The translations under genes were made by a program, and so were the position numbers. Shown piece by piece: positions 1 through 22,483 of a stretch of DNA of 64,000 bases. The stretch spans positions 73,799-137,798 of the forward strand of contig JAJTYH010000002.1 of assembly GCA_021463465.1 (NCBI GenBank), given 5' to 3'. Source of the stretch: a bacterium. GTDB lineage: Bacteria > Patescibacteriota > Dojkabacteria > SC72. Numbering within the stretch: the stretch's first letter is position 1; every line of letters begins with the position of its first letter. The notes beneath the pieces are model-generated. The model did no database searches and was not told the origin of the DNA. It saw nothing but the letters and a program-made list of their open reading frames with translations.

Positions 1-128
1 GGGGTCGGTGGTGGAAGGAAGTAAAGGAGGAACTCTACAACCTCTAAAGGTATACCCACCTCACTGAGATATATACTTATATATAGGTTTTACTTTGCTA
101 ATAAGGCATACAGTGGGATAATACAACA

Positions 129-1088
129 ATGATATATTATATCTACAATCTGGAATTCCCACAGAATAGAGATGAAATACTAGTTGGAGGTTATAAAGTA
201 CAAAAACTTCCTAATTACAATGACCATAGGAAAAAGCTCATGTGGCTAACAAATGTTTCAGACATGGACGGAGAAGTGCATCGAAACACTGGTATCAATG
301 AGCCTACAGCAATTGTTCATGGAATTGGATTGAAGTCCAAATACTTTAAAGGAAAAACACTACTCGAGGACATTTGTTTGCTTCTTACCATATTCACAGG
401 ACGAAATGTTTTTGCTCTAGATCAAAATACATATTTTAGGCAGCTTCCTATACTTGCCGATCCAAGGCTTCACCATTATGGGGGAGTATTGCATTGTTCA
501 CTAAGATACCAAGAAGAAGCTTATAACGAAGAGACCCTCGAAGCAATTACTGAAGCTGAACGAAACAACGATAATCTACTTTGGAATGTGCGCGAAATCG
601 GATTCGAAACAGAAATCAACAAAATACTGCGTCTAATTTATTCAAAAAGGTGGAGAAAAAAATATAAAGGAGGGTATTTTATCTTATTAATGAGACAGGC
701 ACTTAAAAGGATGGATTTAGAACCAACATTTCAACTGTGTTGGACTATTTGGGAACATATATACGCCGTACTAAACCCAAAAGGACTAACACAAGATAAA
801 TTGGAGAAAGTAGCTGGGAAAGATAAAATATCATATCTACTTAAAGAATACTTTAATATCAATTTAAGAAGTGAATCACATAGAGAACTCACTCGAATAA
901 ATAAAGCGAGAAATTCACTTGTACATTTTGGAAGAATTACAAACAATACTAATTATAAGGAAATTGACTTATTTATACGGATGACAGAGTTTTTAGTTGC
1001 TAAAACATTAAAGTTGAATCCATCGAACGTATTTAACACGAATGAAAAAATGTATGACTTTCTAAGACTCAGAGTCCAAAGTAATTAA
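129..1088 (+). CDS. hypothetical protein with C-terminal HEPN-like Rx4H motif (ARNSLVH); possible Abi-type abortive-infection protein
   Basis: 319-aa ORF; C-terminal R-x4-H motif typical of HEPN RNases; located in island with R-M cargo; no other recognisable motifs. Confidence 0.45.
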   Translation: MIYYIYNLEFPQNRDEILVGGYKVQKLPNYNDHRKKLMWLTNVSDMDGEVHRNTGINEPTAIVHGIGLKSKYFKGKTLLEDICLLLTIFTGRNVFALDQNTYFRQLPILADPRLHHYGGVLHCSLRYQEEAYNEETLEAITEAERNNDNLLWNVREIGFETEINKILRLIYSKRWRKKYKGGYFILLMRQALKRMDLEPTFQLCWTIWEHIYAVLNPKGLTQDKLEKVAGKDKISYLLKEYFNINLRSESHRELTRINKARNSLVHFGRITNNTNYKEIDLFIRMTEFLVAKTLKLNPSNVFNTNEKMYDFLRLRVQSN

Positions 1089-1108
1089 GGTATACCCATC
1101 TAAAAGAT

Positions 1109-1774
1109 TTAGGAGGATTTTAGTAGATTACCCAGTACCACTAAACGCTTCTCAGCATTTGGCATATCTAAATCCAGTGATTCTACTTCTTGTAGTAATT
1201 TCCTGAAATAAAGAGATACAGAGAAAAGCTCTAACTCACTAAATTCTGAGGGTGTGTAAGCTAAGTTCATATCCTCGACTTTGATTTTTGAGAATGGAGT
1301 AACTCCATCTGTAGATATTGGCATCCAGTAAATAAGCAGTGGCAGAAGAGTGTATTCAGAGTATATCTTAGGTTTATTCATTTTCTCCAAAACCTTTTCA
1401 GCCTGATAGAATGAGCCTTTGATCTGGTTTTTAAGGTTTATCTCCACTACTGCACTAACCATACTATCTTCAGCTAAAGCGGGTAGTCTTATGCCATTCT
1501 TAGCTGTAGAAGACCAGTTCTTAATTTCAGTCTGGTAAATAATCTTATTATCGTTATCGACAATCCATCTATCAAGCCGATGTCCCCGCAATGTACCCTT
1601 GCTAACAGGCAAATCTAACACGATACAATTGGTATTTTTATTTTTTGAATTAATGTAATGTGCAAATGAAGAGGCACATAAATCCTCCCCAATTACTCCA
1701 ATAATTGCCGAAGCGTGACCAACTTCAGTAGGATCATCAAAGAACTTTAAACTTTCTAATATATTTATCCTCAT
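1109..1774 (-). CDS. hypothetical protein (divergent from C5-MTase; possible nuclease/R-M accessory)
   Basis: 221-aa ORF convergent with upstream gene and divergent from MTase gene at 1870; no diagnostic motif recognised. Confidence 0.45.
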   Translation of the reverse strand: MRINILESLKFFDDPTEVGHASAIIGVIGEDLCASSFAHYINSKNKNTNCIVLDLPVSKGTLRGHRLDRWIVDNDNKIIYQTEIKNWSSTAKNGIRLPALAEDSMVSAVVEINLKNQIKGSFYQAEKVLEKMNKPKIYSEYTLLPLLIYWMPISTDGVTPFSKIKVEDMNLAYTPSEFSELELFSVSLYFRKLLQEVESLDLDMPNAEKRLVVLGNLLKSS

Positions 1775-1869
1775 AAATATGCTTTGTTGTTAATGAATAA
1801 TTAGATATACTATATCATGTATAACTCAGGGATTTGATCTTTACAATTTTATAGAGTAAAATAGAACCT

Positions 1870-3150
1870 GTGAAAACCATGAATAAAAATCAGATTAATA
1901 TAATAGACTTGTTCGCTGGAGTAGGTGGCTTCAGAGTCGCTTTCCAAAAAGCCAACAAGAATCTCAAAGGAGAAATTTTCAAAGTAGTTTGGGGTAACCA
2001 GTGGGAGCCAGGAAAAAAAGTACAATATGCGGCTGAAATATATAAACGACAGTTTGGAGAAGCAGGATTTGTTAATGAAGATATCGCTAAAGTAAAAACA
2101 GAAGATATTCCAAATCACGATTTAATGGTAGGAGGTTTCCCATGCCAAGACTATTCAGTCGCAACAACAAAGAAACTTTCGGGAGGAATTGAAGGGAAAA
2201 AAGGAGTTCTCTGGTGGCAAATAGAAAGAATAATTAGAGAGAAGGGTAAAGATAGTCCAGAGTTTTTACTTTTCGAGAATGTAGATAGACTAATCAGCTC
2301 ACCTGCCAAACAAAGAGGAAGAGATTTTGCAATAATGCTTGCGTGTCTTGATATGCTTGGATATATGGTTGAATGGAGAGTTATAGATGCAAGTGAATAC
2401 GGATTTCCGCAAAGAAGAAAAAGAATATATTTTGTAGGATATAAAAAGAATTCCAAAATATATAAATCTTTTAAAGGTAATCATGAAGACTGGTTACTAA
2501 ATACAGGAACTTTCGCGAAAGGATTCCCTTCAAAAAGGAAGGAAGGGACAGTAACGGTTATAGAGTTAATAAAAGATAGAACTAAGGAATACTCAAAAGT
2601 CATTAAAGACGTAAGTGACAATTTCAACAAAGGTGGCAAGACAACACCTTTCAGAAAAACAGGAGTGATTCTTGACGGTAAAATCTATACGATGGATGTA
2701 ATACCAAACTACAAAGGAAAGAAAACCACGCTTGGCGATATACTTATAGACGAAAAAGATGTCCCTCAAGAATACTTCATACCAAAGGAAGATTTAGAGA
2801 AGTGGAAATATCTTAAGGGAGCCAAAAGAGAAAAGAGAATCCAGAAAGCAACAGGCTTTGAATATAATTACAGTGAAGGAGCTATAACCTATCCAGATGC
2901 ATTAGAAAGGCCATCAAGGACAATTATTACGGGAGAGGGAGGCAAAGGCCCATCTAGGTTCAAACATGTAGTTAAAACACTTTCTGGAAGACTAAGACGA
3001 CTTACACCAATGGAACTTGAAAGATTGGACATGTTCCCAGATAATCATACCGACGGTTATTCACCTCAAACTAGAGCATTCTTAATGGGAAATGCTTTAG
3101 TGGTTGGTGTAATTCAAAAAATTGCAGAATCACTTTATGAGAAAATGTAA
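1870..3150 (+). CDS. DNA (cytosine-5)-methyltransferase
   Basis: Motif I IDLFAGVGGFRVAF (FxGxGG), motif IV GGFPCQDYS (PCQ), motif VI ENV (FENVDRL); 426 aa. Confidence 0.9.
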   Translation: MKTMNKNQINIIDLFAGVGGFRVAFQKANKNLKGEIFKVVWGNQWEPGKKVQYAAEIYKRQFGEAGFVNEDIAKVKTEDIPNHDLMVGGFPCQDYSVATTKKLSGGIEGKKGVLWWQIERIIREKGKDSPEFLLFENVDRLISSPAKQRGRDFAIMLACLDMLGYMVEWRVIDASEYGFPQRRKRIYFVGYKKNSKIYKSFKGNHEDWLLNTGTFAKGFPSKRKEGTVTVIELIKDRTKEYSKVIKDVSDNFNKGGKTTPFRKTGVILDGKIYTMDVIPNYKGKKTTLGDILIDEKDVPQEYFIPKEDLEKWKYLKGAKREKRIQKATGFEYNYSEGAITYPDALERPSRTIITGEGGKGPSRFKHVVKTLSGRLRRLTPMELERLDMFPDNHTDGYSPQTRAFLMGNALVVGVIQKIAESLYEKM

Positions 3151-4489
3151 ATTTGGGGAGTATGACGAAAAGTCAAAAGAATCAATCTTTAAGTATGCGA
3201 CTTTACTAAAAGATAAATCACTTCTAGATTTATATCCTGAAGAAATAAAAAAACTTCCAGAGAAATCAACGGACTATAAAGGGAAAGGGGATATTGGAAC
3301 TATGGTCGAGTATCTACATTTCAATTACCAACCCAATAGCAATGCGGAACCAGATTTTAAAGATGCTAATCTTGAACTAAAAACAACTCCATTAAAAGTA
3401 TCAAACTAAAAATATGTTTCGAAGGAAAGGCTTGTTTTAGGTATGATTGACTATTTCCAAATAACAAAAGAGCAGTTTGAAAAATCTTCATTCCTAAAAA
3501 AGAATGCTTCCTTACTATTACTTTTTTATCTTTATGAGAAAGGACAAGACCTAGCTCAAATCTTCAAACTTATTAAATTGTGGGATATACCACAGTCTGA
3601 CCTTAAGATTATTAAACAGGATTGGACAACGATTTACACCAAGATAAAGAGCGGATTAGCACATGAACTATCTGGCGGTGATACATTATACCTTGAGGCA
3701 GCCAGAAAAGGAGCAGGAGGCGATAAAGATTTCACAAGACAGCCATATTCAAATGAAAAAGCAAAACGACGAGCATTTGCATTTAAGAGTAAGTATGTAA
3801 ACCAAATTATTGACTCTGATAAGGACTTCATTTCTGCTATTGATGATACATTCGAACTGTCAAAACAAACTTTTGAAGAGTATGTCATTGAGAAATTTAA
3901 ACCATTTGTCGGAATGTCTATAAATGAGATATCTGATAAATTTGGACTTAGTTACTCAGCAAAGAAAAAAGATATTGTTGCAGCAATTTCGAGAGCAATT
4001 TTGGGAGTTCCAGAACAAAGTAGAATAGCAGAGTTTGAAAAAGCGGATATTCTAATGAAGACAGTTACTCTTGAGAATAACGGAACACTAAAGGAGAGTA
4101 TGTCATTCCAAAGGATTGATTACTATGAAATAGTGAATGAAGAAGAGTGGGAGGAATCTGCTTTCTACCAAAGAGTTATAAATAGAAAGTTCTTCCTTGT
4201 AGTATTTAAAAAGGACGAGAAAGGAACTAAGCGACTATTTAAAGTAATGTTCTGGAGCATGCCAGAGAGATTAAGACAGCTAGCAGAACAGTATTGGAAC
4301 GATGTAAAAGAGAAAACCGAAGCAGGCGATATGGAAAACTTTTGGAAATTAAAAGACAAGAAAGGTTTTCATGTAAGACCAAAAGCACGAGATTCAAAGG
4401 ATACGACAACATTAAGGGATGGTACTGCGGCTCCAAAGTTAGGTTACTGGATTAACTCGGAAGAGATTAAGAAAGTAATATTAGGCTAA
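3122..4489 (+). pseudogene. Sau3AI/MutH-like PD-(D/E)xK restriction endonuclease interrupted by in-frame TAA (3407..3409); ORFs 3122..3409 and 3443..4489 are in the same frame
   Basis: N-terminal fragment carries EPDFKD...NLELKTTPL (PD...ELK catalytic motif as in MutH/Sau3AI ELKT); second ORF continues in identical frame after a single TAA; sits immediately downstream of C5-MTase. Confidence 0.5.
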
Positions 4490-4620
4490 TGGGACAGTGG
4501 AGGAAGGAAGCAAAGGCGGGACTAAACAATTTTTAAGGGTATACCTACCTTACGGATACATATATTTATTTCTACGTACTTTAGAGGTAAAATCAGGAAT
4601 TGACATAATAGTTTCTTTTA

Positions 4621-5385
4621 ATGGTTAAAACAGAATTAATTAAGATAGTTTATTTTGATGAATCGTCTGCAATCGACTATTTGGAAATTTCAAACAAAGG
4701 GAGGCAAATAAGCGAAAAAACAACAGCATCAAGTAAACAGGGGAAAATAGGAGCGACGGCTGGCGCGAGTATTGGAACGAATAGTTTACTTACAAAGATA
4801 ATCAGCCCACTCCTGAGTCTAGATGTAAGTGCGGAAAGTTCCACTAAACTGGCCATGATTGGAGAATCTGTAGTAAAAACATCAATATCTAATACCCTTC
4901 TATCCGATTATATCGAGAAAGCTGAAAAAGATCGCCGATTAACAATCCTCACTGATTATACAATTTCCACAACAACAGAATCTTTTTCCTACATTAAAAT
5001 GGCTGCTCCTTATTTCAAATTATTTAATCTACCTGAAAGTAAGATTAATATTGATGCGCTAGATCAAATATTAGAAGCCGGGAAAGGATACTACGAGTTA
5101 GTGGCAAACAATATTTCTCAAAACGATACAAAAATACTTAGATTTAATATTCGGGCATTCAGAAATAACTATCATCTAGTTGACCTCACAAAGATGAAAA
5201 TTAAGATATACGGTGTCAAAGTAGGGGAAGCGACTTTAGAATCAGTAAAAGCTGGTCAAGAGTTTAATGTTGCTCCAGCCGAAGTCCCAACATTAGCTGA
5301 CATCGTAAATGGTGAGAATCAATCATCAAAAGCATTCGACCTAATAGATGTTGTACTTGTTGGTGTAAGCCATGGAGAAAATTAA
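4621..5385 (+). CDS. hypothetical protein, upstream partner of Clp-like ATPase (overlaps it by 14 nt)
   Basis: 254-aa ORF translationally coupled to 5372..6505; no recognisable motif. Confidence 0.5.
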   Translation: MVKTELIKIVYFDESSAIDYLEISNKGRQISEKTTASSKQGKIGATAGASIGTNSLLTKIISPLLSLDVSAESSTKLAMIGESVVKTSISNTLLSDYIEKAEKDRRLTILTDYTISTTTESFSYIKMAAPYFKLFNLPESKINIDALDQILEAGKGYYELVANNISQNDTKILRFNIRAFRNNYHLVDLTKMKIKIYGVKVGEATLESVKAGQEFNVAPAEVPTLADIVNGENQSSKAFDLIDVVLVGVSHGEN

Positions 5386-6505
5386 AACAATAAAAATTTA
5401 TATTGGCTCCAAGGGTGGATTTACTGAATTCGTAAAAAAACATCTTGGTGAAAGTCCATACAAAGATCTTACAGGGCTACTATACATTCATGACGCGTAC
5501 TCTCGAACAATTACCGTTAAACAAGATAATAGCGATGATAAAACAGACATATCTCACCAAATTCCAACCTTTAATAACCTGGTAATAAATGCTGATGAAT
5601 ATAGTGGTGTTAATGAGCTGCTTTTGTTTAATATTGAGCGTTACATAGAGCTATTTCAAATCGAAACTCTCATAGTTCATAATCCCCCAAAGCTCTTAGA
5701 AAGCAATTTAAGGAGGGCCTATAAAGAGAAGATAGAGACTGAAACTCAAAAATATAAGGAATTTAGCAGTCGAGATTTAACTAAATTGTTATCTCGTTTG
5801 AAAGACGCTGTATTAGGTCAAGAAACCGCAATTCAAAAACTTGTTACTTCAATTTATACACTTACCAGAGATAAGGAAGCCACCAAACCAATAGTATTAC
5901 TCCTTTACGGCCCTTCTGGAGTTGGGAAAACAGAATCCGCTAAAATAATTGCGGACTCATTGGGTGAAAACCTTTTCAGAAAGCAGCTTTCTATGTTTCA
6001 GAACAGCGAATTTATTACTTACTTATTTGGCGGGAAACATTATGAGAAAAGCCTTGCCAGAGATCTTGTTGAAAGAGAAAGCAACGTTATTCTTTTAGAT
6101 GAATTCGACAAGGCTAACCTGGTAGCTCATTCTGCGTTCTATCAGCTATTTGACGAAGGTGTTTTTGAGGATAAGAATTATAACGTAAACTTAACACGAT
6201 CGATAATACTATGTACATCAAACTTTACTAGTACAGAGACAATCCGAAAAGAGTTAGGTGAGCCAATTTTCTCTAGATTCGATGGTCACATTGAATACAA
6301 GCCACTTGATTCTGCATCAATGAAACTGATAATAGAAAAAATAATTGATGAGGAGTTACTAAAAATCAAAGATAATGATTATGAGAAAACGGAAATTTTA
6401 AGTATGTTTGAGCCCTATCTAACAAAACTGTCAAATGCAAGACTTGCTAAAAATTTAGTCAGAGAATACTTTTCGACCGAACTTTTCAAAAAAATAACTT
6501 CATAA
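5372..6505 (+). CDS. AAA+ ATPase, ClpA/ClpB D2-domain-like
   Basis: Walker A LLLYGPSGVGKTESAKIIA, sensor/Walker B region ILLDEFDKANLVAHSAFYQLFDEG resembling Clp D2 LLDEIEKAH...LLQVLDDG; 377 aa, no N-domain or D1. Confidence 0.7.
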   Translation: MEKIKTIKIYIGSKGGFTEFVKKHLGESPYKDLTGLLYIHDAYSRTITVKQDNSDDKTDISHQIPTFNNLVINADEYSGVNELLLFNIERYIELFQIETLIVHNPPKLLESNLRRAYKEKIETETQKYKEFSSRDLTKLLSRLKDAVLGQETAIQKLVTSIYTLTRDKEATKPIVLLLYGPSGVGKTESAKIIADSLGENLFRKQLSMFQNSEFITYLFGGKHYEKSLARDLVERESNVILLDEFDKANLVAHSAFYQLFDEGVFEDKNYNVNLTRSIILCTSNFTSTETIRKELGEPIFSRFDGHIEYKPLDSASMKLIIEKIIDEELLKIKDNDYEKTEILSMFEPYLTKLSNARLAKNLVREYFSTELFKKITS

Positions 6506-6521
6506 AGAAAGTCCAAGCTAT

Positions 6522-7517
6522 CTAAGAGGCAATGGGCAGGGATTCGCCTTCTTCATGAACATAAAGAGATCTTACAGAGAGGTATTCTAAGTAAATCTCA
6601 TTATTTATCAGTGAGATATTTTTCTTAATTAATGAATCATAAAATGCTTTAATATCAGGATCATCACCAATACTATGAACCTGATCATTCTCAATATAAG
6701 CTTTCAATAAAGTATTTAATTGTGTGGATGTGAATTCTTCAATAGCTGAAAGCCTCGCGACGCATTCGTGGGTATATTTGAACATTCCCGAAAGTCTCAA
6801 ATTTTCAATAAGAAAGTCTTTCTCAAGCTCAGCGGCTAGTTTTACATCAGGGTAATGAGCCCTGAAGAAATCAGATATTCTAGAATAAAAATGTATCTCC
6901 GATTTCTTATCACGATTCCATTCGTTTAACAGGTACTGTGAGAAGCCTACGGTCTTAACAGGAGATAGATAATCCCCATCTTCGGTAATAAAGTACAAAT
7001 CCTGATTCGCAGGAACACCTTCCTTTAACGCTTCCCAGTTAACAGCATCACCATACGAGCCATTTTTACCGGGCGGATTGCCTAGTTTTACACGAATTTG
7101 AGCTCTATGATATATGTTATTATTTGTAGGAATTACCTTTGAGACTTTGAATAACTCCTTGATTATTGAATCTGCGTTGAAACCATTTGTCTTTACCTTC
7201 TCATATGTCTCGTTTAAAACTTCATTCTGGGCTTCCTCATACTGTTTAACGGAATCTTTTAACTTTTTGTAAAGCATTGGATTTTCACGACATATCTGGG
7301 GAAACCTTTTCGGTATTGGATTGCTTACCCAAGTTTTCAATGAATCTGCAATTTTCTCTTCACGATTACGATTGAACTCGTCAATAACCTGATTTGGAAC
7401 AAATAGTGTCATCTTCCGATTCTTGATTGCAACTATTAGTTTTTTCAATTCCTCCAAATCTTCATCACTATAATGAAAGAATGTAAGATAAACGTTTGTA
7501 TCTATAAATATATTCAT
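6522..7517 (-). CDS. PIN-like N-terminal domain protein
   Basis: N-terminus MNIFIDTNVYL...DEF resembles PIN-domain acidic core; 331 aa with uncharacterised C-terminal region. Confidence 0.4.
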   Translation of the reverse strand: MNIFIDTNVYLTFFHYSDEDLEELKKLIVAIKNRKMTLFVPNQVIDEFNRNREEKIADSLKTWVSNPIPKRFPQICRENPMLYKKLKDSVKQYEEAQNEVLNETYEKVKTNGFNADSIIKELFKVSKVIPTNNNIYHRAQIRVKLGNPPGKNGSYGDAVNWEALKEGVPANQDLYFITEDGDYLSPVKTVGFSQYLLNEWNRDKKSEIHFYSRISDFFRAHYPDVKLAAELEKDFLIENLRLSGMFKYTHECVARLSAIEEFTSTQLNTLLKAYIENDQVHSIGDDPDIKAFYDSLIKKNISLINNEIYLEYLSVRSLYVHEEGESLPIAS

Positions 7518-7556
7518 TCCCTTAACAGTTACAGTTGGTTTACGCTATAATTATAC

Positions 7557-7710
7557 CGCATTACCTAAACCTAGTAATAGGCATGGTGATAAAAATTGAA
7601 TCCACGACGAATAACGCGGCTCTCCGGCCGGTCCATTCGTCGTGGTCTATATCTCGAAAGGGATATGGGGGTTCCGAAAGGAACTCGCTGGTTCGGAGGG
7701 CCACTTTTGT
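7557..7710 (+). ncRNA. structured leader/ncRNA, copy 1 (three GNRA-tetraloop hairpins plus 11-bp stem); homolog of 21740..21890 on minus strand
   Basis: Promoter TTAACA(7523-7528)-17nt-TATAAT(7546-7551); hairpins CCTA-GTAA-TAGG, CCACGACGAAT/ATTCGTCGTGG (7602-7612/7635-7645), ATATCTC-GAAA-GGGATAT (7649-7666), GGTTCC-GAAA-GGAACT (7670-7685), tail CGCTGGTTCGGAGGGCCAC; same architecture with compensatory changes in second copy. Confidence 0.6.
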
Positions 7711-7743
7711 TATACCTCCAGAGATAAAATAAATCAGATAAAC

Positions 7744-8448
7744 ATGCAAAAGTATACAGTTACAACTCTAAAAGAGGAGCTAGTAAAAATAATAATTGAA
7801 ACACCGTTACAAGAGGTGTATTGGGAAACAATCGGCTATTCAGAAAGACCTAAACCAGGATCGCTTATCTCAGATTTATTCAAGCTATTAGTAGGTAAAA
7901 AGTCTCTCAGGGAGCAGAAACTTTACAACTTCATTTTCCTTGAACTCATCATTTTAGCCATCTTTGATATCGCAGTCTGGTTTGAGAAAAGAAACCGTGA
8001 CTATCTATTTAACGCAGTTTTTATAGCGATTCTAGTCACCGAAATATCATCGATCATGTCACAAGATCAATTAAGAGGTTCTTTCTTTAAAGGCATCCGT
8101 GAGGCTATTGAATACATATCATTAGGGTTTAACAGCTATAAGCACAACGATCCTATAAATGCGTTTAGCAAACGTCTAGAAAATATACAAAGCGAATCAG
8201 AAGCTTCAGATCAAAAGATAGAAAGTATTCGAAATGGCTTTAAAAACTTATTTCAAACACCCACAACACTTAGTGGAAAAAGTCTTTTGCTAAGCTACCC
8301 TGATTTGGATGCCCACTTCTTTAAATATTATGAGAAAGAACAGTTTGATTTATCAAATGACAGCCCTACAGAGAACCCGATAGGAAAGGGGTTCAATCGT
8401 GATGATCTGAAATTCGCTACAGAAATGCTATTTTATAAGAAGAAATAA
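7744..8448 (+). CDS. membrane protein (2 predicted TM helices); ORF-track start 7642 lies inside the upstream structured RNA, ATG 7744 preferred
   Basis: Hydrophobic segments LYNFIFLELIILAIFDIAVWF and LFNAVFIAILVTEISSIM; ATG at 7744 directly after RNA element. Confidence 0.5.
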   Translation: MQKYTVTTLKEELVKIIIETPLQEVYWETIGYSERPKPGSLISDLFKLLVGKKSLREQKLYNFIFLELIILAIFDIAVWFEKRNRDYLFNAVFIAILVTEISSIMSQDQLRGSFFKGIREAIEYISLGFNSYKHNDPINAFSKRLENIQSESEASDQKIESIRNGFKNLFQTPTTLSGKSLLLSYPDLDAHFFKYYEKEQFDLSNDSPTENPIGKGFNRDDLKFATEMLFYKKK

Positions 8449-8464
8449 ATCGTATTACAAAAGG

Positions 8465-9403
8465 ATGAAATCAAAAATAGTGGGTTCAATATTTGCTCAC
8501 GCCAGTGGAGATTACCTTGGTATGCCCGTTGAATTTGCTTCTACACCCGCACAGGTACAGGATTTCTTCGGTAGTGAAGGCATAAGACCTATTGATACTA
8601 ATAGCAGGGGAACGAAACCAGCTGGTTACTATACTGATGACACGGCTATGATGCTGTGTTTAGCCCAGAGTCTCATAGACAAAGGATTCGATACCTTAGA
8701 TCAATTCCAGAAATATAAGAAGTGGGCTTTTGAAGGATATATGTCTGCTGATGGAAAGACTTCTTTTGGAATAGGACAGAATACATTAAGGAAACTAATG
8801 TGGCAGAAGCCGGAAGAAATACCTACAGCAATTCATAGCAACGATAAAGAAGGTGGAAACGGAGCATTAATGAGATGCCTTCCTATTGGACTCATATACC
8901 ATAACAATACTGATGATGTAGTTGATAAGAGTATAAAATCAGCACTTGTTACGCACAACAATACCATTGCGGTTTGGACTACAGTTGTATTCAATACACT
9001 CATAACATACTGCCTGCATAATATTGAGAAAGAGGGGTTTGTATCAAAACTCGCAACAGAGCCCTACTATAAAAATATCCCCGCTGAAATAAAGAAAGTG
9101 CTGGATAGACTAGGTAATCTAAAAACGGAGGAGCTCAAGACCAGTGGATACTCACTTAATACCTTGGAGGTCGCTCTGCATTCATTTTTCAGCTCTGATA
9201 GTCTGGAAGCTGCTATCAAGGCATCAATTGGTTTTGGAGGCGATACAGATACTCAAGGGGCGGTCACAGGAGGTCTTGCTGGAGCATATTACGGTTATGA
9301 AGCAATTCCAAAAGAATGGACAGCTCACTTATTAAATAAAGAATTGATGCAAGAGATCTCAGATAAGATAGCCTCGATATCACTTAGCACACCTAATACA
9401 TAG
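8465..9403 (+). CDS. ADP-ribosylglycohydrolase family protein
   Basis: N-terminal GSIFAHASGDYLGMPVEF and GYYTDDTAMMLCLAQSL motifs characteristic of ARH/DraG family; 312 aa. Confidence 0.75.
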   Translation: MKSKIVGSIFAHASGDYLGMPVEFASTPAQVQDFFGSEGIRPIDTNSRGTKPAGYYTDDTAMMLCLAQSLIDKGFDTLDQFQKYKKWAFEGYMSADGKTSFGIGQNTLRKLMWQKPEEIPTAIHSNDKEGGNGALMRCLPIGLIYHNNTDDVVDKSIKSALVTHNNTIAVWTTVVFNTLITYCLHNIEKEGFVSKLATEPYYKNIPAEIKKVLDRLGNLKTEELKTSGYSLNTLEVALHSFFSSDSLEAAIKASIGFGGDTDTQGAVTGGLAGAYYGYEAIPKEWTAHLLNKELMQEISDKIASISLSTPNT

Positions 9404-9619
9404 GTAACCTTCCAGTGATTCGATTAACTTTCCACATCTTCTGGAACACTTAGGACATTGAAACCAAAGTCTTTCTCCTCCACCATTTGTATTTGTTGTT
9501 GTCATCGGGACATTAACTCCATCAAGATCAAGCTTTGACTTGATTAAAGCTTCGATTACCTTACTCCGAACACTTCTAACCAGCTCATGAATTGTAATGC
9601 TCTTAGAATAACCCGTCAT
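9380..9619 (-). CDS. small zinc-ribbon protein
   Basis: 79 aa with CPKCSRRCG...CIRC (CxxC...CxxC). Confidence 0.35.
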   Translation of the reverse strand: MTGYSKSITIHELVRSVRSKVIEALIKSKLDLDGVNVPMTTTNTNGGGERLWFQCPKCSRRCGKLIESLEGYLCIRCAK

Positions 9620-10185
9620 TGATTCTCGGGAATTATTTTATCCTTTTGCACAACATTCAACTGCTGATTAGTTCCAAATAGATTGTTTAGAGTACCAATC
9701 TTCACATTTATTGGACGTGCTCTGAGCTGGATAAGCAATTTCATATTGTCCTCGTAATGTTTATGCGCTCTATCCAGTTCTCGACCTATCATTGAACAGT
9801 ATCTGTCTCTGCCAAATAACAAATCGGGATTATTTAAGAAGCTGTTAAACGATGTTGTTAGCTGAAGAATACGCACATACGAAACTGCTATATTATGAAT
9901 GATTATTTTCTCCGAAGGTTTAACGACTTTCAGTTCATTCTCAAGGTCTCTCACAATCTGAACAATGTACGACTTATACTCCTCGTCTACAGCTTTAGAA
10001 AGTAGTGAAAGGTTATCCATGTTCAATGAATACATATACTTTTTTGCTAGAAGACACGTTTCAACAGATGCTTTCCCTTCATCTTTGTTGTATGACTTCA
10101 CTAGCTCATCACCCAGAAATTCTGGGTCATCCTTGTTTAAATATATTTTCTTAACCTCTTTAATCCCTTTATTCATACTATTCAT
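9616..10185 (-). CDS. hypothetical protein
   Basis: 189-aa ORF, 4-nt overlap with downstream zinc-ribbon ORF (operon-like). Confidence 0.45.
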   Translation of the reverse strand: MNSMNKGIKEVKKIYLNKDDPEFLGDELVKSYNKDEGKASVETCLLAKKYMYSLNMDNLSLLSKAVDEEYKSYIVQIVRDLENELKVVKPSEKIIIHNIAVSYVRILQLTTSFNSFLNNPDLLFGRDRYCSMIGRELDRAHKHYEDNMKLLIQLRARPINVKIGTLNNLFGTNQQLNVVQKDKIIPENQ

Positions 10186-10241
10186 TTTACATCAAAATAA
10201 TGATTAAGTAACATTACCGTACCGCCATCAAAGCTGTATAA

Positions 10242-11144
10242 TTGACGTATCTAAATCAGATTAAATATATGGAACCATTAACAAGCCTTAACCTCAATAT
10301 AATCCCTCCGGAAAAGCCTAAAAAAAGAGGAAAACTTAAATATAAAGAAGGATTTTTAGTTGAGAATAAATACGATGACCCGTATATAGAGGTCGAGTAC
10401 ACTGTAAGAATTAAGAATGCGATTTCAATGTCGAAATTACTTAATGTCTGTCCATGGTTTGTAGAAATTGTAAGTAAATTTAGAAAAACACATAAACTAG
10501 AGGGCAATGAATTCACTCTAGAAGATCTAAAAATACTTAATGAGGATCTATTCTCCGAATGGAATATTGAAACGCACCCATACAAAGTCAATTTATCTTT
10601 TATTGATAAACTTAGCCTCAATCGTGCAAGGGAGATATATAAAAGTGCGATACATATGTGTGAAGAGCTAGAAACAGCCAGTAATTTTAAAACTATTGAG
10701 AAGTACCTAAAAAGATTTGACACTCATTTAGTCAATATTCTCTTAACAAATTCAATTGATCTAAGTAGATACTCCGTATATGCAGGCATTGCTATTATTC
10801 CAGGAGAGTTCCTAATAAATGTTGATAGGAATGCTAAGTATATTGAACTTGATTCGGAAGTTACTATCCCAACCTTAGTTTCATATATCAAGAACTATAG
10901 CTTTGCAATAAGTTCCGGTCAGGAGATTGATGCTCTCAATATTGATGATAAAACAGTTGATCTTTTAAGATACGGTTTTGTAGATAGCTACGGTAAATAT
11001 AATAAGTTGATGGTAAAGAGTAGCCATTATCCCCATCAAAAGTATTCTGCGATAAAACTTAAGGATATGTTTAAACGGAAGAAACAGTATCTTAAGGAAA
11101 AAGGGCTCATTTCATTATTTAGGGAAACTTCTACAGCCAGTTAA
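10242..11144 (+). CDS. hypothetical protein
   Basis: 300-aa ORF, no recognisable motif. Confidence 0.45.
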   Translation: MTYLNQIKYMEPLTSLNLNIIPPEKPKKRGKLKYKEGFLVENKYDDPYIEVEYTVRIKNAISMSKLLNVCPWFVEIVSKFRKTHKLEGNEFTLEDLKILNEDLFSEWNIETHPYKVNLSFIDKLSLNRAREIYKSAIHMCEELETASNFKTIEKYLKRFDTHLVNILLTNSIDLSRYSVYAGIAIIPGEFLINVDRNAKYIELDSEVTIPTLVSYIKNYSFAISSGQEIDALNIDDKTVDLLRYGFVDSYGKYNKLMVKSSHYPHQKYSAIKLKDMFKRKKQYLKEKGLISLFRETSTAS

Positions 11145-11599: not shown

Positions 11600-13681
11600 A
11601 TGAATAACATCAAAGAATTACTGCAAAAGCACAACATCACAATCAAAAGAGAAGTCGGACATGAACTCATGGTTGATTGTCTCTTCAATAGCTGCGACGA
11701 AGATAGCAGACAGAATGAAGCACATCTTTATATAAATTCACAGACCGGTGCATTTGATTGTAAAAAATGCGGAACAAAAGGAGGTTTCAAAGAATTACTA
11801 GGAATACTTGGGGAAACTGAAAAAACCGAGCAGTCCAATCAGTACTCCCCATATAATTATAGTAAATACGAAGAAAAATTAACACAGGAAGACATTAACT
11901 ACCTGATCAACAAAAGAGGATTAACAATTGAGACTATCAAGAACCATCATATCGGTGTTGCGAACTTCTATAAATCACGATGGCTAACAATCCCATACTT
12001 TGATGAGCAGGGTATATATAAAGAGGCATACAAGCTTCGCACTACTGTAGAAAATTATTCTCCCAAGTATAAAGTCTATCCGATTGGTGCACACATGACA
12101 CTATACGGGCTTGATAAACTCAACAAAGATTTAGACTACGTAATTATATCTGAAGGGGAGTTTGATTGTATGCTTCTACATCAGGAAGGCATGAATGCAG
12201 TCAGTGTCGGAACGGGTGCAGCTACCTTCAAAGATGAATGGTTTGAAGCACTTACTCCATACAAGAAAGTATATATTTGCTTTGATAATGATGAGGCAGG
12301 TCGGAAAGGAACAGAACAGTTAAGGACAAAACTTAGTTTCAAATGTCCAGACAAACGAATATTCAGAATAAACTTTGATTCTAAATATAAAGATATAACT
12401 GAACTTCATGTAGCTGGAGGGTCAATTGAGGATGCGTTCGCAAATGCAGAAGAAATGGAAACATATGCAACGCCTAGAAATGAGATGTCCATCCAAGAAC
12501 TACAAGGCATCCTTGATGCAACAATCAAAGAGGACGATGTAAACAAGGTCGTAACATTCCTCGCAATGCTAACGATGTATACCAAGGATTCCCAGCTGAA
12601 TTTGATGTATTCAGCACCATCGTCAACAGGAAAAAGCTACATACCGATTGAAGTATCAAAGCTATTCCCAGAAGAAGATCTTATTCAATTGGCTTATGTT
12701 TCTCCGACTGCCTTTTTTCACGATCAAGGGGAGTATGATGAAAGTAAGAATCAAATAGTAATGGACTTTCATGGAAAGGCTATAATATTTCTTGATCAAC
12801 CAAATTCTATACTCCTTGAGCGATTAAGACCGATTCTCTCTCATGATAAAGAGGAAGTACTAATCAAAATTACTGATAAGAACTTAAAAGGTGGGAATAA
12901 GACCAAGAATGTTTTGATGAAAGGATTTCCAGCAGTGATATTCTGTACAGCGAATACCAATACTAATGAACAAGAATTAACAAGAGTATTGCTCCTCAGT
13001 CCAGAAACGACACAAGAGAAAATCAAGTTTGGTATTAAAAACAGAATATTACTAGAAAGTGATAGGGAAGCCTACTACGATAAGATAGAAGCTAATATTG
13101 AAAGACAGGAGCTGAAAAAGCGAATCAAAGCTATCAAATATTCAAATATTAATCATGTGAAGGTGAACAACTGGCATGAGATATATGAAGAGTACATTGA
13201 GTCTGAACAGGTACTCAAACCAAGGCATCAACGAGATTCAGGAAAGCTTATTCAATTAATTGTTTCGTTGGCACTACTCAATCAATGGAACAGGAAGAGA
13301 ATTGATGATAAGACAATTGAAGCCTCTGAACAGGATGTTAAACAGGCTCTAGTACTCTGGAAAGAGATATCGTTAGCTCAAGACCTTGAAATACCACCAT
13401 ATGTCTTAAGTTTCCTTTACCAAGTCGTTGGACCAACAGCAATTGAACATAGTAAAAATCCAATCGTAGATGATATCGTACTAGGCAAAAGACTACTTAT
13501 AAAGCTCTATAGAGAAATTTACAAAGTGATCGTTAGCCCTAAGGAACTTCATAACAAATATATGGCTCCACTTGTAAATGCAGGAATTTTTGAAGAAATT
13601 CAGGGGTATTCGGATGGTCGTGAAAAAGATTATCTATTAACAGAGTTTGGGCTAGAAAAAATAAATATTAAGCAAGGGTAG
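11600..13681 (+). CDS. DNA primase/helicase of mobile element (CHC2 zinc finger + Toprim + P-loop NTPase; P4-alpha-like)
   Basis: CDEDSRQNEAHLYINSQTGAFDCKKCG zinc-binding motif; Toprim VIISEGEFDCMLL...ICFDNDEAGRKG; P-loop SAPSSTGKSY; 693 aa. Confidence 0.8.
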   Translation: MNNIKELLQKHNITIKREVGHELMVDCLFNSCDEDSRQNEAHLYINSQTGAFDCKKCGTKGGFKELLGILGETEKTEQSNQYSPYNYSKYEEKLTQEDINYLINKRGLTIETIKNHHIGVANFYKSRWLTIPYFDEQGIYKEAYKLRTTVENYSPKYKVYPIGAHMTLYGLDKLNKDLDYVIISEGEFDCMLLHQEGMNAVSVGTGAATFKDEWFEALTPYKKVYICFDNDEAGRKGTEQLRTKLSFKCPDKRIFRINFDSKYKDITELHVAGGSIEDAFANAEEMETYATPRNEMSIQELQGILDATIKEDDVNKVVTFLAMLTMYTKDSQLNLMYSAPSSTGKSYIPIEVSKLFPEEDLIQLAYVSPTAFFHDQGEYDESKNQIVMDFHGKAIIFLDQPNSILLERLRPILSHDKEEVLIKITDKNLKGGNKTKNVLMKGFPAVIFCTANTNTNEQELTRVLLLSPETTQEKIKFGIKNRILLESDREAYYDKIEANIERQELKKRIKAIKYSNINHVKVNNWHEIYEEYIESEQVLKPRHQRDSGKLIQLIVSLALLNQWNRKRIDDKTIEASEQDVKQALVLWKEISLAQDLEIPPYVLSFLYQVVGPTAIEHSKNPIVDDIVLGKRLLIKLYREIYKVIVSPKELHNKYMAPLVNAGIFEEIQGYSDGREKDYLLTEFGLEKINIKQG

Positions 13682-13751
13682 GGTAACCAAAAAAGTTTAC
13701 AAGAGTTTGTAGACAGGTTATTATGAAGTGCTTACCTAACAATACAATACT

Positions 13752-13830
13752 CGAGACGAAAAGGGAGTCCAGTTCCAATGCTACGTCTCGTAGTTGTTGG
13801 GTAAGCACTGGGCTCCCTTTTGTTATTTAA
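13752..13830 (+). terminator. putative rho-independent terminator / nested inverted repeats downstream of primase gene
   Basis: AAAAGGGAGTCCAG (13759-13772) pairs with CACTGGGCTCCCTTTT (13806-13821) followed by TTTTGTTATTT; additional 7-bp IR CGAGACG/CGTCTCG (13752-13758/13784-13790). Confidence 0.45.
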
Positions 13831-13847
13831 ATTAACAATAACTAGCG

Positions 13848-15458
13848 ATGGAACTAAAAAGAAAAGCTTCCAAATATATTCTTTATGCACGTAAATCAAC
13901 TGAAGGAGAAGACCGACAACAGGCTTCTATAGAATCTCAAATTGCTGAAATGCAAAAGATCGCTTTGGAATACGGTTTGAATATTGTAGAAGTCCTTTCG
14001 GAAAGCCGATCCGGATATAAACTTGGAAGACCTGAATTTCAACGCATGATAGGTATGCTTGATAATGGAGAAGCAGATGGAATTCTTTGTTGGAAACTTT
14101 CAAGATTGTCTAGAAATGCCGATGATGGAGGGAGGATAATAGGAATGTTGCAGAGAGGAGAAATAAAGCATATCAAGACTTACGATGGTGGTTGGTATCC
14201 CGAAGATGACCACATGATGATATTCCTAGAGTTAGGTATAAACAACAAGTTCAGCAAGGATCTCGGAACGGATACTAAGCGTGGTTTAAGGGCAAAAGCT
14301 GAACGAGGATGGTACCCATGCGCAACGTTACCTTTAGGGTATAAACACCATCCAGAAGAGGTTTTAAAGAAACATTCTGACATGGAGATCATACCTGATG
14401 AGCCCATGTTCAGTATAATAAAGGCCATGCTCAAAGAATTAGCGGAGAAAAAATTTTCTCCGAAGCAAGTCTTTGATCATGCTATCGCTAACGGCTTCCG
14501 CACACGTAAAGGTGGCATACCTTCTTTCTCTGTGTTCTATCGTATAGCGGAACATCCTTTCTATTATGGAGAATACAAATTCACAATTGACGGAGAGGAG
14601 CAAGTGTTTCAAGGAAAGCATAAACCAATGATAACAAGGGCTGAATACGAGTCTATACAGAAGGTTAAAGGTCGCGGTCACATTGTAAAACAGCAAAAGT
14701 ATTTCCACTCATTCACTGGACTAATGAAATGTGGAGAGTGTGGGTGTTTCATTACCGGAGATCCCACTAGACTGAAGACAAACAAGAAAGGGGAAGTTCG
14801 GAAGTTTACATACTATCATTGCACAAAAAAGAAAGGGCCATGTTCGCAACCTCATATCACACAAGAAGACCTGATAGAAACATTTGATAAAGTACTTAGC
14901 ATGATTCATATCCCCGAGGAATTAGTTGATTATGCATTAGAGGAAATACAAAAAGAGCATCAGGAGAAGAAGCTTGCAAGAATGGGTGTACTAAAGAATA
15001 ACCAAAAGGAGTATGAAGGACTAAGTAAAAAGCTAGATTTACTTACAGAGAAAAACTTAAACGGAGTGATAGATGATGAGGAATACAAAAGAAAAAGAGA
15101 TCAGATTAAATCCCATATGTCACTAGTACAATCACTAATCAACACCAATGATAGTTCAAGAGATGAATGGCTGATGAGAGTAAAGAAGAGGTTATCGTTC
15201 GCAGAAAGGGCATGTAGAACATTCAGAACAGGGTCTCCGGAGCTAAAGAAGGACATCATGATGGAGTTACAGTCTCAAATCATCGTTAAGGATAAGAGTA
15301 TAAAGCTAGATCTAGACCCATTACTAAGCCTCTTTTTCAAGAAGCCTAATCAACACGATCTTGAAAAAATATTGGTTCGAACCAAAACAAATGAAGTAGG
15401 GACAAACATATTCGAAATTTTCTTTTCCAACAATTCCATCTGGGGTGGAAGATGTTGA
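13848..15458 (+). CDS. large serine recombinase (island integrase 1)
   Basis: N-terminal resolvase domain YARKSTEGEDRQQASIESQ (catalytic Ser), recombinase domain, zinc ribbon CGECGC...C, coiled-coil; 536 aa; 3' end of gene carries tggggtggaagatg repeat of tRNA-His 3' end. Confidence 0.9.
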   Translation: MELKRKASKYILYARKSTEGEDRQQASIESQIAEMQKIALEYGLNIVEVLSESRSGYKLGRPEFQRMIGMLDNGEADGILCWKLSRLSRNADDGGRIIGMLQRGEIKHIKTYDGGWYPEDDHMMIFLELGINNKFSKDLGTDTKRGLRAKAERGWYPCATLPLGYKHHPEEVLKKHSDMEIIPDEPMFSIIKAMLKELAEKKFSPKQVFDHAIANGFRTRKGGIPSFSVFYRIAEHPFYYGEYKFTIDGEEQVFQGKHKPMITRAEYESIQKVKGRGHIVKQQKYFHSFTGLMKCGECGCFITGDPTRLKTNKKGEVRKFTYYHCTKKKGPCSQPHITQEDLIETFDKVLSMIHIPEELVDYALEEIQKEHQEKKLARMGVLKNNQKEYEGLSKKLDLLTEKNLNGVIDDEEYKRKRDQIKSHMSLVQSLINTNDSSRDEWLMRVKKRLSFAERACRTFRTGSPELKKDIMMELQSQIIVKDKSIKLDLDPLLSLFFKKPNQHDLEKILVRTKTNEVGTNIFEIFFSNNSIWGGRC

Positions 15459-15631
15459 GTTTTACAAACATTCAACGCAAACTACTCTTAGTGAAATGAT
15501 AAACCTTCAAAATTTACTTAACAAGGCGATTAAAGAATTCACAGAGATTGTAGATAGGCATAAAAACGATAATAATTCTTCTAATGCTATTAGTTACATT
15601 CTATGATATTAGGGGAGGTTATTACAAACAA

Positions 15632-16021
15632 TTAAGAGACATCAGTAGTAATATCCTTGTCAGAATACCTTACTAACCGTCCTGGAGAAAATTGTGATAC
15701 TCCTGTAGTAACAGTATCTCCAAAAAACAGCCTCTTATTCAACTCAGAAGGTATCGGTACCTGGCCAGTAAACATACCATCGGTAATTCCAAGTTTACGG
15801 TAATATGCTTCAACGGAAGAAGTTCCAGTATCTAGGTCTCTCACTAGTTCCGATAAATGAGACCTTTGTGGGTTATTGAGAATATCTTCTTTAATATCGC
15901 AATATACTTTATAAAAATCTTCGAATAAATTTTTGCAACTTATAAACAACTCTTTATTTCTAGTAAACTTCAAGTGCAAACCTGGATTATTAATATGAAC
16001 TAAGATACCTTTTTTAGTCAA
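15632..16021 (-). CDS. hypothetical protein (last gene of NTase operon)
   Basis: 129-aa ORF, co-directional with NTase cluster. Confidence 0.4.
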   Translation of the reverse strand: MTKKGILVHINNPGLHLKFTRNKELFISCKNLFEDFYKVYCDIKEDILNNPQRSHLSELVRDLDTGTSSVEAYYRKLGITDGMFTGQVPIPSELNKRLFFGDTVTTGVSQFSPGRLVRYSDKDITTDVS

Positions 16022-16096
16022 GAAGTAATGTGCAGTTCCATTCCTTATTGCAAGACGAATTGTTTTACCACATTCATCAGTGTATATCTCTTTATA

Positions 16097-16312
16097 TTAC
16101 TTTAAGTTCTGCCAAAATGCATAATAAGCATCATCACCTTCTTTGCCGGACATAATCATTCCGATTAATTCCATTCCAGAGACAATAGTTTGTAGACAAG
16201 GATATGCGACTCTACCGTATCTTTTCGCGGGAATCGAAAAAATTGATTTGATGTCTTCAATAAGATATTTGTCTACTTTATCAAAAAAAGCTGATAAATC
16301 TGAATTATCCAT
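16097..16312 (-). CDS. hypothetical small protein
   Basis: 71-aa ORF overlapping upstream gene by 8 nt. Confidence 0.35.
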   Translation of the reverse strand: MDNSDLSAFFDKVDKYLIEDIKSIFSIPAKRYGRVAYPCLQTIVSGMELIGMIMSGKEGDDAYYAFWQNLK

Positions 16313-17099
16313 TTTTCTTCAGTGATTTTATAAATATTATTGTCTCAACCGTAAAGAATAAAACTAATCGTGCTTCATTAAGACTAAATTCTGTTTTTTC
16401 AGCATCACTTCCTTGGTGTTTGACACCCTTGTTATTATAAAAGACAAAATTAGTTGCGAATTCTTGAATCATGGCAATAAGTCTTTCTGAAACTTGATGT
16501 GAAGCAAGATAGTTTTCTAATCTTGATTTTGCACCATCTTGCTTTGCGACATTCTTTTCTAGACTTGAATCGTAAATAGTTTCTCTTAAAGCATTTTCAA
16601 AAGCTAGCCGAGAATCATCAATAACATTTCTTAAATATTTGCCTTCGGACAGTTTATCGTAAGCGGAAATAATTAGTTCTTCAACATTCTTCACATCTTT
16701 TAAAAGGGGGAGGGAAGTAGATAGTCTCTCCTTATCAATTGTTTGTTCGCTTTCCTCTTGGACTGCCTTTTTGAAACTTTCTAACCATCTACTAACCTGA
16801 TAGAAACTCTGTTTTAAGTATTCAGGGTCAATATGGTCAGAGACCACATCACCCGGCCTTGGCACGTGATGCCATACTGTTGGCATACCTGGAATCCCAT
16901 GCCCTTTTTCAAGGATAAGATTCAAAATTTCGTTATCGTCACCAATCAATACTTCTAGATTTGATACAAACTCTTGTGTTTCATCCTTTAATCTTTTCAA
17001 GTGTTCCTCTTTTACGACATTATTATTTATTAGCTTCTGATATCTAAGAAGCTTGCTATCGAATATATTAATTTCTTTACTTATATCTCCTATCACCAT
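16305..17099 (-). CDS. hypothetical protein (NTase operon component)
   Basis: 264-aa ORF, tightly packed downstream of 2TM protein; no recognised domain. Confidence 0.5.
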   Translation of the reverse strand: MVIGDISKEINIFDSKLLRYQKLINNNVVKEEHLKRLKDETQEFVSNLEVLIGDDNEILNLILEKGHGIPGMPTVWHHVPRPGDVVSDHIDPEYLKQSFYQVSRWLESFKKAVQEESEQTIDKERLSTSLPLLKDVKNVEELIISAYDKLSEGKYLRNVIDDSRLAFENALRETIYDSSLEKNVAKQDGAKSRLENYLASHQVSERLIAMIQEFATNFVFYNNKGVKHQGSDAEKTEFSLNEARLVLFFTVETIIFIKSLKKNG

Positions 17100-17107
17100 A
17101 AGTATAA

Positions 17108-17719: not shown

Positions 17720-17725
17720 CGAAGT

Positions 17726-18475: not shown

Positions 18476-18792
18476 GTATACGTCATATGTAAAATTTGAT
18501 AGGCTGAATTTTTTCTTAAGTTCCTCAATATCTAAATTCGAATCTAATGCCTCAATTACTTTATCTTTTGTAGATATAATCTTCGCTGTTTCCTTTTCAT
18601 CAGGTGGACTAGCAAATTGAGTGAGTTGGTTTAAAGAAATCCTGTTTATTTATACTTAAATTACCAGCTAATTTTACCACTTTTCGATTATTTTTTAAGT
18701 AGATATCTCTATAAATCGTTAATATTTAAAACTAATTATGAGTTAATTTTCAGACTTGAAATAAAAGTCTTTTTAGCAAATAATGTAAGTAT

Positions 18793-20962: not shown

Positions 20963-20968
20963 TTACGA

Positions 20969-21700: not shown

Positions 21701-21739
21701 AACTAGATTCTAATAATTTATCTAGCTTGGTCTAAAAGG

Positions 21740-21890: not shown

Positions 21891-21972
21891 GGTCAATTAT
21901 ACAATTTTGAAATCGTATTGCATATATATTGGACGTATAAACATTGTACTCAAAACATGTTAATATTAGCTT

Positions 21973-22473: not shown

Positions 22474-22483
22474 TGCAACAATT

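Follow-up and report, generated by a model that had tools for sequence, protein, structure and literature searches.

Our study examined a 64-kb stretch of DNA (hereafter the window; positions 73 799 to 137 798, forward strand, of contig JAJTYH010000002.1, assembly GCA_021463465.1) from a bacterium of the Dojkabacteria, within the candidate phyla radiation (CPR), and in particular a pair of imperfect direct repeats at its left end. Repeat copy B (1-89, +) and copy C (4490-4578, +) bracket a 4.5-kb unit, here called E_B, that carries a HEPN gene and a restriction-modification (R-M) system. Copy C is followed by a complete element of about 11 kb, E_C, which ends in the gene for a large serine recombinase (LSR), LSR1 (13848-15458, +). 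A second, unrelated LSR element, E2 (15456-24536), lies between E_C and the gene for tRNA-His(GTG) (24537-24613, −), the chromosomal target of the insertions. The repeats are probably the P′ arms of attachment (att) sites, left behind by the serial integration of related elements at the 3′ end of this tRNA gene.

The repeats were seen to be a real, non-random feature, and their nature can now largely be explained. An ungapped alignment of copies B and C matched at 64 of 85 positions (75 %, or 77 % over the first 60 nt), which bears out the long repeat claimed by the original prediction, made from the sequence of the window. Placed elsewhere in the window, the same 85-mer averaged 22.4±4.0 matches, with 41 as the next best, and blastn returned 75.9 % identity over 87 nt (E 7.7e-13). 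The 17-mer TAARGGTATACCYAYCT was likewise recovered exactly at 45-61 and 4534-4550. A third, solitary copy at 1085-1101 lies where it had been placed and overlaps the stop codon (TAA, 1086-1088) of the open reading frame (ORF) at 129-1088, but it is not exact, as one mismatch was found (TTAAGG...). With up to two mismatches allowed, these three matches compare with 0.08 expected, and 0 of 100 shuffles reached three; the palindrome GGTATACC alone occurs four times in 64 kb, against 0.39 expected. The palindromic core leaves the orientation of the solitary copy ambiguous: it matches B at 16 of 17 positions in direct orientation, and C over 32 nt at 72 % when inverted. It is probably a relic of a further junction or of an inverted-type box, an assignment that we make with low confidence.

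The start of the window cuts the repeat, the first base of copy B (the T of TGGGGT) lying just upstream of position 1. A third full copy, A, was located 0.9 kb upstream of the window, at 8981-9069 of the 288-kb contig L001, which was retrieved by an exact-protein look-up and is identical to window positions 1-11088 except for two single-nucleotide polymorphisms. Copy A is 82 % identical to B, begins 30 nt past the copA stop codon and is separated from B by one 237-aa ORF on the minus strand. No copy of the repeat beyond B and C was detected in the window by an nhmmer profile.

Comparison with a relative (L005), whose CopA is 90 % identical, revealed the unoccupied target. In L005 only 30 nt separate the copA stop codon from tRNA-His, which lies on the minus strand, and relative to this empty site the island is an insertion. 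The CopA relatives comprise a 90 % match to a metagenome-assembled genome labelled Saccharibacteria and matches of 65-69 % to Dojkabacteria, and they assign the host to Patescibacteria. In the genome of the window, copy A adjoins the copA flank GTTAGAACTTTT at TGGGGT, with tRNA-His about 25.4 kb to the right; the outermost repeat therefore sits exactly at the left junction between chromosome and island. The 3′ end of the tRNA gene (TGGGGTGGAAGATGGGAC on the plus strand) forms the B′ side of the attachment site. TGGGGT is the reverse complement of the ACCCCA end of tRNA-His and is the sole part common to repeat and tRNA.

The location of the array at a tRNA 3′ end, together with repeats that begin with TGGGGT, would also fit a reading in which each repeat is a displaced 3′ fragment of tRNA-His, as in islands of tyrosine integrases. 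However, beyond approximately 6 nt the local alignment to tRNA-His was no better than that to shuffles or to other tRNAs, neither ARAGORN nor Rfam gave a tRNA match, and what is repeated is sequence from the element side of the crossover; we consider this origin very improbable. A pseudo-tRNA origin of the whole repeat was also rejected, except for the 6-nt core, as the alignment was not significant. By eye, the resident tRNA-His shows a T-T mismatch in its acceptor stem (5′ GGTGGATG/3′ CTTCCACC), whereas the stem in L005 is perfect; the 3′ strand of the acceptor is the portion supplied by the inserted element.

The reading of the repeats as P′ arms was further examined using relatives of LSR1. 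Its closest homologues (P0001, P0002 and P0004; 69, 60 and 59 % identical) are encoded at loci L085, L086 and L087, and at all three the 3′ end of the LSR gene overlaps the 3′ end of tRNA-His. A model of the repeat matched L086 (116-199; nhmmer 5e-07) and L087 (123-202; 3e-05) once each, about 11.2 kb to the left of the tRNA; an improved model scored 1e-18 and 1e-17, respectively, but was built including these two sequences. Copy C and the end of LSR1 are separated by the same spacing of about 11 kb in the window. In these elements the LSR gene is found at one end, by the att site, and the repeat at the opposite end, one element length away.

At L086, 120 of 120 nt through TGGGGT are identical between the left end of the contig and the 3′ end of the LSR gene; past TGGGGT they part, with the P′ arm following in one copy and the tRNA in the other. 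This P-TGGGGT-P′ (attP) junction indicates, from the assembled sequence, a circular form or a tandem copy in the sample. Locus L091, from the JGI metagenomes, carries an arm identical to that of L086 behind a different left flank, and the left flanks of copy B differ between L001 and a second contig, L002. Every left flank diverges exactly at TGGGGT, a short common core. Locus L092, on a 557-kb JGI contig, carries an arm 92 % identical to copy A, followed by 4.5 kb of metabolic genes without an integrase and then by tRNA-His. The JGI scan used the pattern GGGGTCGNTGGTGGAAN{32,36}TATACC and returned six loci, two of which were true (L091 and L092) and four chance matches to GC-rich sequence; the same pattern gave 0 loci in IMG/VR. 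A stricter pattern, GGAAGGAAGN{25,29}GGTATACCNAYCT, gave 0 in GTDB representative genomes and 0 in JGI metagenomes. Neither LSR1 nor an alignment of its 20-member family found relatives in IMG/VR.

Our study also revealed what the first half of the repeat encodes. Read from TGG GGT, all arms translate to a stop codon at the same place, giving WGRWWKEVKEELYNL in B, WGRWWKEVKQELYNL in A, WGRWWKKVKQELYNL in L092 and WGRWWKLVISELINLQ in both L086 and L087. The 48 nt at the start of the repeat encode an alternative C-terminal tail of 15 aa for the integrase (WGRWWKEVKEELYNL, then stop). In copy B this orphan tail ORF occupies 1-47 (+), reading (W)GRWWKEVKEELYNL with TAA at 45-47, and the 17-mer starts with this stop codon. 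In copy C the tail ORF is frame-shifted via a 1-nt deletion (GQWRKEAKAGLNNF) and has its TAA at 4534-4536; the core of this copy is degenerate (TGGGAC). The tails of L086 and L087 differ at six nucleotides, all synonymous (simulated P about 2e-5), and among A, B and L092 the tail varies at seven sites, of which five are third codon positions and none is a second position. These substitution patterns indicate that the tail-coding part is under purifying selection and evolves as coding sequence. A small ORF starting within the repeat (ATG in B and C) was considered and rejected, as the conserved frame is the one that continues the upstream integrase ORF from TGG GGT.

In the integrated state, LSR1-family proteins close with ...WGG followed by an antisense reading of the tRNA (WGGRWDLNPQPSVPQTDALTN); in LSR1 itself the last codons, TGG GGT GGA AGA (WGGR), are the att core. 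Since the ORF crosses TGGGGT into tRNA antisense, attP lies inside the integrase ORF, and the P′ arm supplies the tail when the element is excised. When the P side of LSR2, the recombinase of E2, is joined past the junction at 15441-15454, its ORF becomes longer by 48 codons, and this extension holds SEMINLQ, which resembles the SELINLQ of LSR1 tails. Many of the Patescibacteria homologues in databases (P0001-P0040) end in WGG or MGG and continue into tRNA antisense (for example ...WGGRWDLNPQPSVPQTDALTN and ...WGGQRGSNPSPPLPQSGALTR), and in many others the sequence breaks off right at ...WGG, presumably because the contig ends there. From these endings, an attP within the integrase 3′ end and the targeting of tRNA 3′ ends seem to be a trait of the whole family.

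The second half of the repeat is non-coding, and its best-conserved part is TATACCYACC, which is identical across subfamilies with different tails. This box, (GG)TATACCCACC in copy B, lies at 49-60 within the 17-mer (45-61, +), and at 4538-4549 in copy C. The original prediction had offered, beside recombination sites or together with them, a duplicated promoter or operator, with the GGTATACC palindrome as a plausible site for a dimeric regulator; on this view the repeat would stand before defence operons and the regulator would be encoded on the island. Copies B and C do sit 40-45 nt upstream of the starts of co-oriented defence genes, and an operator would give a function to a box that is otherwise unexplained. 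This claim was nevertheless not supported, because the homologous arms of L086, L087 and L091 read AATATACC rather than the palindrome; what is conserved is the asymmetric TATACCYACC. The sigma70-like hexamers lie to the right of the conserved 85 nt: the promoter candidate for the ORF at 129-1088 (95-122, +; TTGCTA-16-GATAAT, with TG) and that for dolA (4580-4609, +; TTTAGA-18-CATAAT, with TG) are both outside the repeat. Copy A and the copies of L086 and L087 abut the 3′ end of a convergent gene and are not followed by a co-oriented one, and the pattern of change in the first 48 nt is that of coding sequence. At five loci elsewhere with homologues of the HEPN gene, neither the repeat nor the 17-mer or box is present, and no helix-turn-helix regulator was detected beside the repeats among the window ORFs scanned; both results also count against an operator, which we judge to be improbable.

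An inverted copy of the box (TAATATACCTACC) was observed to overlap the primase stop codon in L086 (9610, −), L087 (9581, −) and L085 (9830, −), and in L086 and L087 13-14 nt of it are identical to the box of their own arm. The window holds a degenerate inverted box, GGGTAGGGTAACC, at 13676-13690. With an inverted box at the primase stop, the integrase gene of the circular form would have a box on either side, the pair being inverted repeats. A scan of 1-4700 for inverted repeats, which considered the ends of a miniature inverted-repeat transposable element or insertion sequence, showed nothing at the unit ends, and the only relevant pair was the palindromic box.

Some units in these arrays lack a recombinase and are bounded by att cores on both sides. 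E_B, the HEPN and R-M unit, runs from arm B to the core that starts arm C. The comparison of cassettes across genomes that had been proposed with the original prediction found E_B in a second context: it recurs in L002 (9875-14362, against window 3-4493) at 93 % identity, core to core, where it is preceded by a type I R-M cassette and followed by TGGGGTGGAAGAG and unrelated DNA. The 0.9-kb cassette between copies A and B and the metabolic cassette of L092 share left and right arms, although their cargo is unrelated. Their right arms of about 25 nt are nearly the same (GAAGTAAGTCCGAACAAAT in L092 and GAAATAAGTTCGAACAAAT in the A-B cassette), the shared sequence before the core being GAA[A/G]TAAGT[T/C]CGAACAAAT. 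Recombinase-less units with such boundaries were therefore found in different arrays. By analogy with the mobilization of pseudo-SCC elements by Ccr recombinases, these integrase-less cassettes may be mobilized in trans.

Imperfect, co-oriented direct repeats between unrelated cargo, with some units lacking a recombinase of their own, also recall an integron-like array, in which attC-type sites form single-strand folds and serve as substrates of a tyrosine integron integrase. Against this, no tyrosine recombinase or Phage_integrase-type domain was found among the window ORFs scanned (129 to 27196), and folding of either strand as single-stranded DNA did no better than folding of shuffles (z +0.25 to +1.1 over seven copies and strands). 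There are no R″/R′ inverted core sites, the cassettes occur in both orientations, and the recombinases of the array are of the serine type, with ORFs that cross the site. An integron of this kind is extremely improbable. A structured RNA or DNA element was also rejected, as there was no Rfam match over the repeats at E up to 5 and the folds were no better than shuffles.

A closer competitor accepts that the arms are left ends of elements but takes the integrase-less cassettes to be decayed remnants, shuffled by homologous recombination rather than mobilized site-specifically. Signs of decay are present: indels break the frame in copy C and in copy B of L002, the restriction endonuclease gene of E_B has a nonsense mutation and LSR2 is split. 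The arms are also 75-92 % identical over 85 nt, enough for occasional RecA-dependent exchange. Two observations speak against it. The right boundary of E_B in L002 falls at the core before an unrelated arm, which offers no homology for an exchange, and the A-B and L092 cassettes share both arms with entirely different cargo, as expected of functional ends. We view passive shuffling of remnants as a possible but unlikely account of these cassettes.

Taken together, the evidence favours the reading of the repeats as P′ arms. An LSR1-type integrase of the Patescibacteria family would join elements at the 3′ end of tRNA-His. In the excised circle, the integrase ORF would cross the TGGGGT core into the P′ arm and end with the 15-aa tail (WGRWWKEVKEELYNL); after integration it would instead enter tRNA antisense (WGGRWDLNPQ...) or a neighbouring element. 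Integration would leave the 48 tail-coding nucleotides and about 40 nt more, comprising the TATACCYACC box and an AT-rich stretch, orphaned at the element's far left. Three of these ends would stand in a row, with A at the junction of chromosome and island, B starting the 4.5-kb E_B and C starting the complete E_C of about 11 kb. Catalysis of these joins by an LSR is our inference from the sequence, and the swap of tails may influence the activity or stability of the integrase. Of the recombination sites originally proposed, the delimiting of cassettes has held, since each repeat starts at a serine-integrase core, TGGGGT, and E_B recurs core to core. The repeat as a whole is not a symmetrical site; it is the P′ arm of attP, and its first 48 nt are an orphaned integrase tail.

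Several points weigh against this reading. All collections searched yielded only about six independent arm copies. No recognizable arm was found within 10 kb in two distant tRNA-His elements (L094 and L096; LSR 41 % identical), nor in the L085 DNA examined, outside which the left end of that element lies. The solitary 17-mer at 1085-1101 has no TGGGGT core beside it and is accounted for only as a relic. The box is 45-55 nt from the crossover, past the usual half-site of a serine integrase, so recombination alone does not explain its conservation. The attribution of the joins to LSR recombination is drawn from where the genes lie and how the junctions are built. Breakpoints at the left edge of the repeat could also arise through homologous recombination between arms. 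Furthermore, recombination of attP with attL or attR is not known for canonical serine integrases, and repeated stacking at one tRNA therefore needs behaviour like that of the staphylococcal cassette chromosome (SCC).

A more far-reaching proposal is that the tRNA-His 3′ end in CPR bacteria may serve as a serine-recombinase-driven, integron-like capture platform. Small integrase-less cassettes with defence or metabolic cargo, each with conserved arms of about 85 nt on the left and about 25 nt on the right, would enter it, leave it and be rearranged there through LSR1-type integrases that act in trans. Exchange of the tail would switch the stability or directionality of the integrase with its integration state, and the inverted TATACCYACC boxes would be part of the control. 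We put this forward as a tentative and rather doubtful extension.

The island resembles SCC composite islands, in which Ccr serine recombinases stack and mobilize SCCmec and recombinase-less, defence-rich SCC-like cassettes bounded by att repeats (PMC11470126). Common to both are a large serine recombinase, integration at the 3′ end of one conserved housekeeping gene, tandem stacking, units without a recombinase, cargo rich in R-M and anti-phage systems, and an imperfect direct repeat with an att core at every junction. The target here, however, is a tRNA gene rather than rlmH, and the host is a CPR bacterium. Here attP also lies inside the integrase ORF, the junction repeat is 85 nt long, half of it an orphaned coding tail, and mobilization is deduced from sequence.

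Accretion between integrative and conjugative elements (ICE) and cis-mobilizable elements (CIME), as for ICESt1 and ICESt3 of Streptococcus thermophilus, and tRNA islands of the Islander type involve tyrosine integrases, and their direct repeats copy the 3′ end of the target gene. Repeated integration likewise gives att-element-att arrays there, including non-autonomous units that keep only att sites, but in our island only 6 nt are common with the tRNA and the repeat is element sequence. Broussard et al. are said to have described, in 2013, integration-dependent immunity in cluster G and N mycobacteriophages, with attP inside the repressor gene and a tyrosine integrase. In archaeal integrases of the SSV1 type, the whole integrase gene is split upon integration. 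Both share with our island an att site within a coding region of the element, so that integrated and excised states encode different C-termini; here, by contrast, only a 15-aa tail is swapped, in a serine integrase (about 48 aa for LSR2), and a regulatory effect is putative. Overall, the island is an SCC-like accretion linked to a tRNA, known in kind. Its unusual traits are a serine integrase at a tRNA end, attP in the integrase ORF with exchange of the tail, and the CPR host.

An unexplained pair of repeats has thereby become a precise map of the assembly of a defence island in a CPR bacterium, a group whose mobile elements are hardly characterized. The analysis defines attB, attP, attL and attR sequences for a widespread family of Patescibacteria serine integrases that target tRNA 3′ ends, a target that is unusual for serine integrases, and integration swaps the C-terminus of the integrase, as the ORF crosses attP. 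The data suggest that R-M, HEPN, Dodola and even metabolic cassettes travel among these small genomes along a route like that of SCCmec. Defined att sites are also possible genetic tools for organisms that currently have none.

The cargo of E_B was as the original prediction had described it, HEPN-like and R-M genes. The ORF at 129-1088 (+) encodes an Apea-type HEPN protein with the Rx4H motif RNSLVH; its homologues carry PF18739, and one is named 'HEPN domain-containing protein' by NCBI. It is followed by a 221-aa ORF without an assigned function (1109-1774, −), a type II C-5 cytosine (m5C) DNA methyltransferase (1879-3150, +) and a Sau3AI/MutH-like type II restriction endonuclease (3137-4489, +), which is intact in the near-identical L001 (450 aa). 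Both differences between the window and L001 in 11 kb (3407 and 3993) fall in the endonuclease gene, and the change of AAA to TAA at 3407-3409 truncates it in frame. This suggests a strain-level loss of the restriction half of the R-M system, with the methyltransferase left intact.

In E_C, copy C is followed by a Dodola defence system as left-end cargo (4621-6505, +; DolA 4621-5385, DolB 5372-6505), and then in order by a PIN protein, a LOOT RNA (RF03000; 7562-7686, +), an ADP-ribosylglycohydrolase, a Toprim primase-like replication protein (11600-13681, +) and LSR1. The right end of E_C, the P arm within the LSR1 gene, meets the left end of E2 at the junction TGGGGTGGAAGATG (15441-15454, +). 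LSR2 (22842-24558, +) is encoded by two ORFs, and its 3′ end overlaps that of tRNA-His (attR). Both recombinases carry Resolvase, Recombinase and Zn-ribbon domains, and the best NCBIfam match of LSR1 is CcrB, though far under the cut-off of that model. No similarity was detectable between the C-terminal parts of LSR1 and LSR2, which argues for two different families on one shared target. In LSR2 the Resolvase-domain ORF (22842-23453) and the Recombinase/Zn-ribbon ORF (23431-24558) overlap by 23 nt. This split is probably a frameshift, and the element proximal to the tRNA may therefore be immobilized. To the right of the tRNA lie the housekeeping genes for RecG, tyrosyl-tRNA synthetase (TyrRS), penicillin-binding protein 2 (PBP2) and FtsW, which identify the host as bacterial.

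In E2, a Cap15-type cyclic-dinucleotide receptor effector (17108-17719) has unannotated ORFs on both sides, and this region (16305-18475, −) may be a system resembling the cyclic-oligonucleotide-based anti-phage signalling system (CBASS). A second m5C methyltransferase with an adjacent 369-aa ORF (18793-20962, +) may be a second R-M system. The distant elements L094 and L096 differ in having a tyrosine recombinase gene (8913-9962 in each) directly upstream of the serine recombinase, and their cargo comprises GmrSD and a type ISP/MmeI-like R-M system. A diverged arm seen by eye near position 1030 of L002 was dropped, as it had no nhmmer support.

A second match to the LOOT RNA was found in E2 (21764-21886, −), one per serine-recombinase element, and both matches (59.8 and 71.1 bits) score above the gathering score. 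The LOOT region is about 81 % conserved in the three related elements (L085 3364-3525, L086 4652-4843 and L087 4657-4848). From its presence in both elements and its conservation in the relatives, LOOT seems to belong to the backbone of these CPR integrative elements, including those of the LSR1 type. Lastly, a non-coding element of about 110 nt between the primase stop and the LSR1 start (window ~13725-13835, +) is conserved in the relatives (L085 ~9885-9985, L086 ~9668-9760 and L087 ~9640-9730) and is without a match in Rfam. Its predicted structure comprises a 14-bp outer stem (GCTTACCYAACAAT/GTTGTTGGGTAAGC), a possible pseudoknot (GGGAGTCCAG/CTGGGCTCCC) and an inner stem with a compensatory change (CGAGACG/CGTCTCG compared to CGAACCG/CGGCTCG), and these predicted pairings make it a candidate structured leader of the integrase gene.

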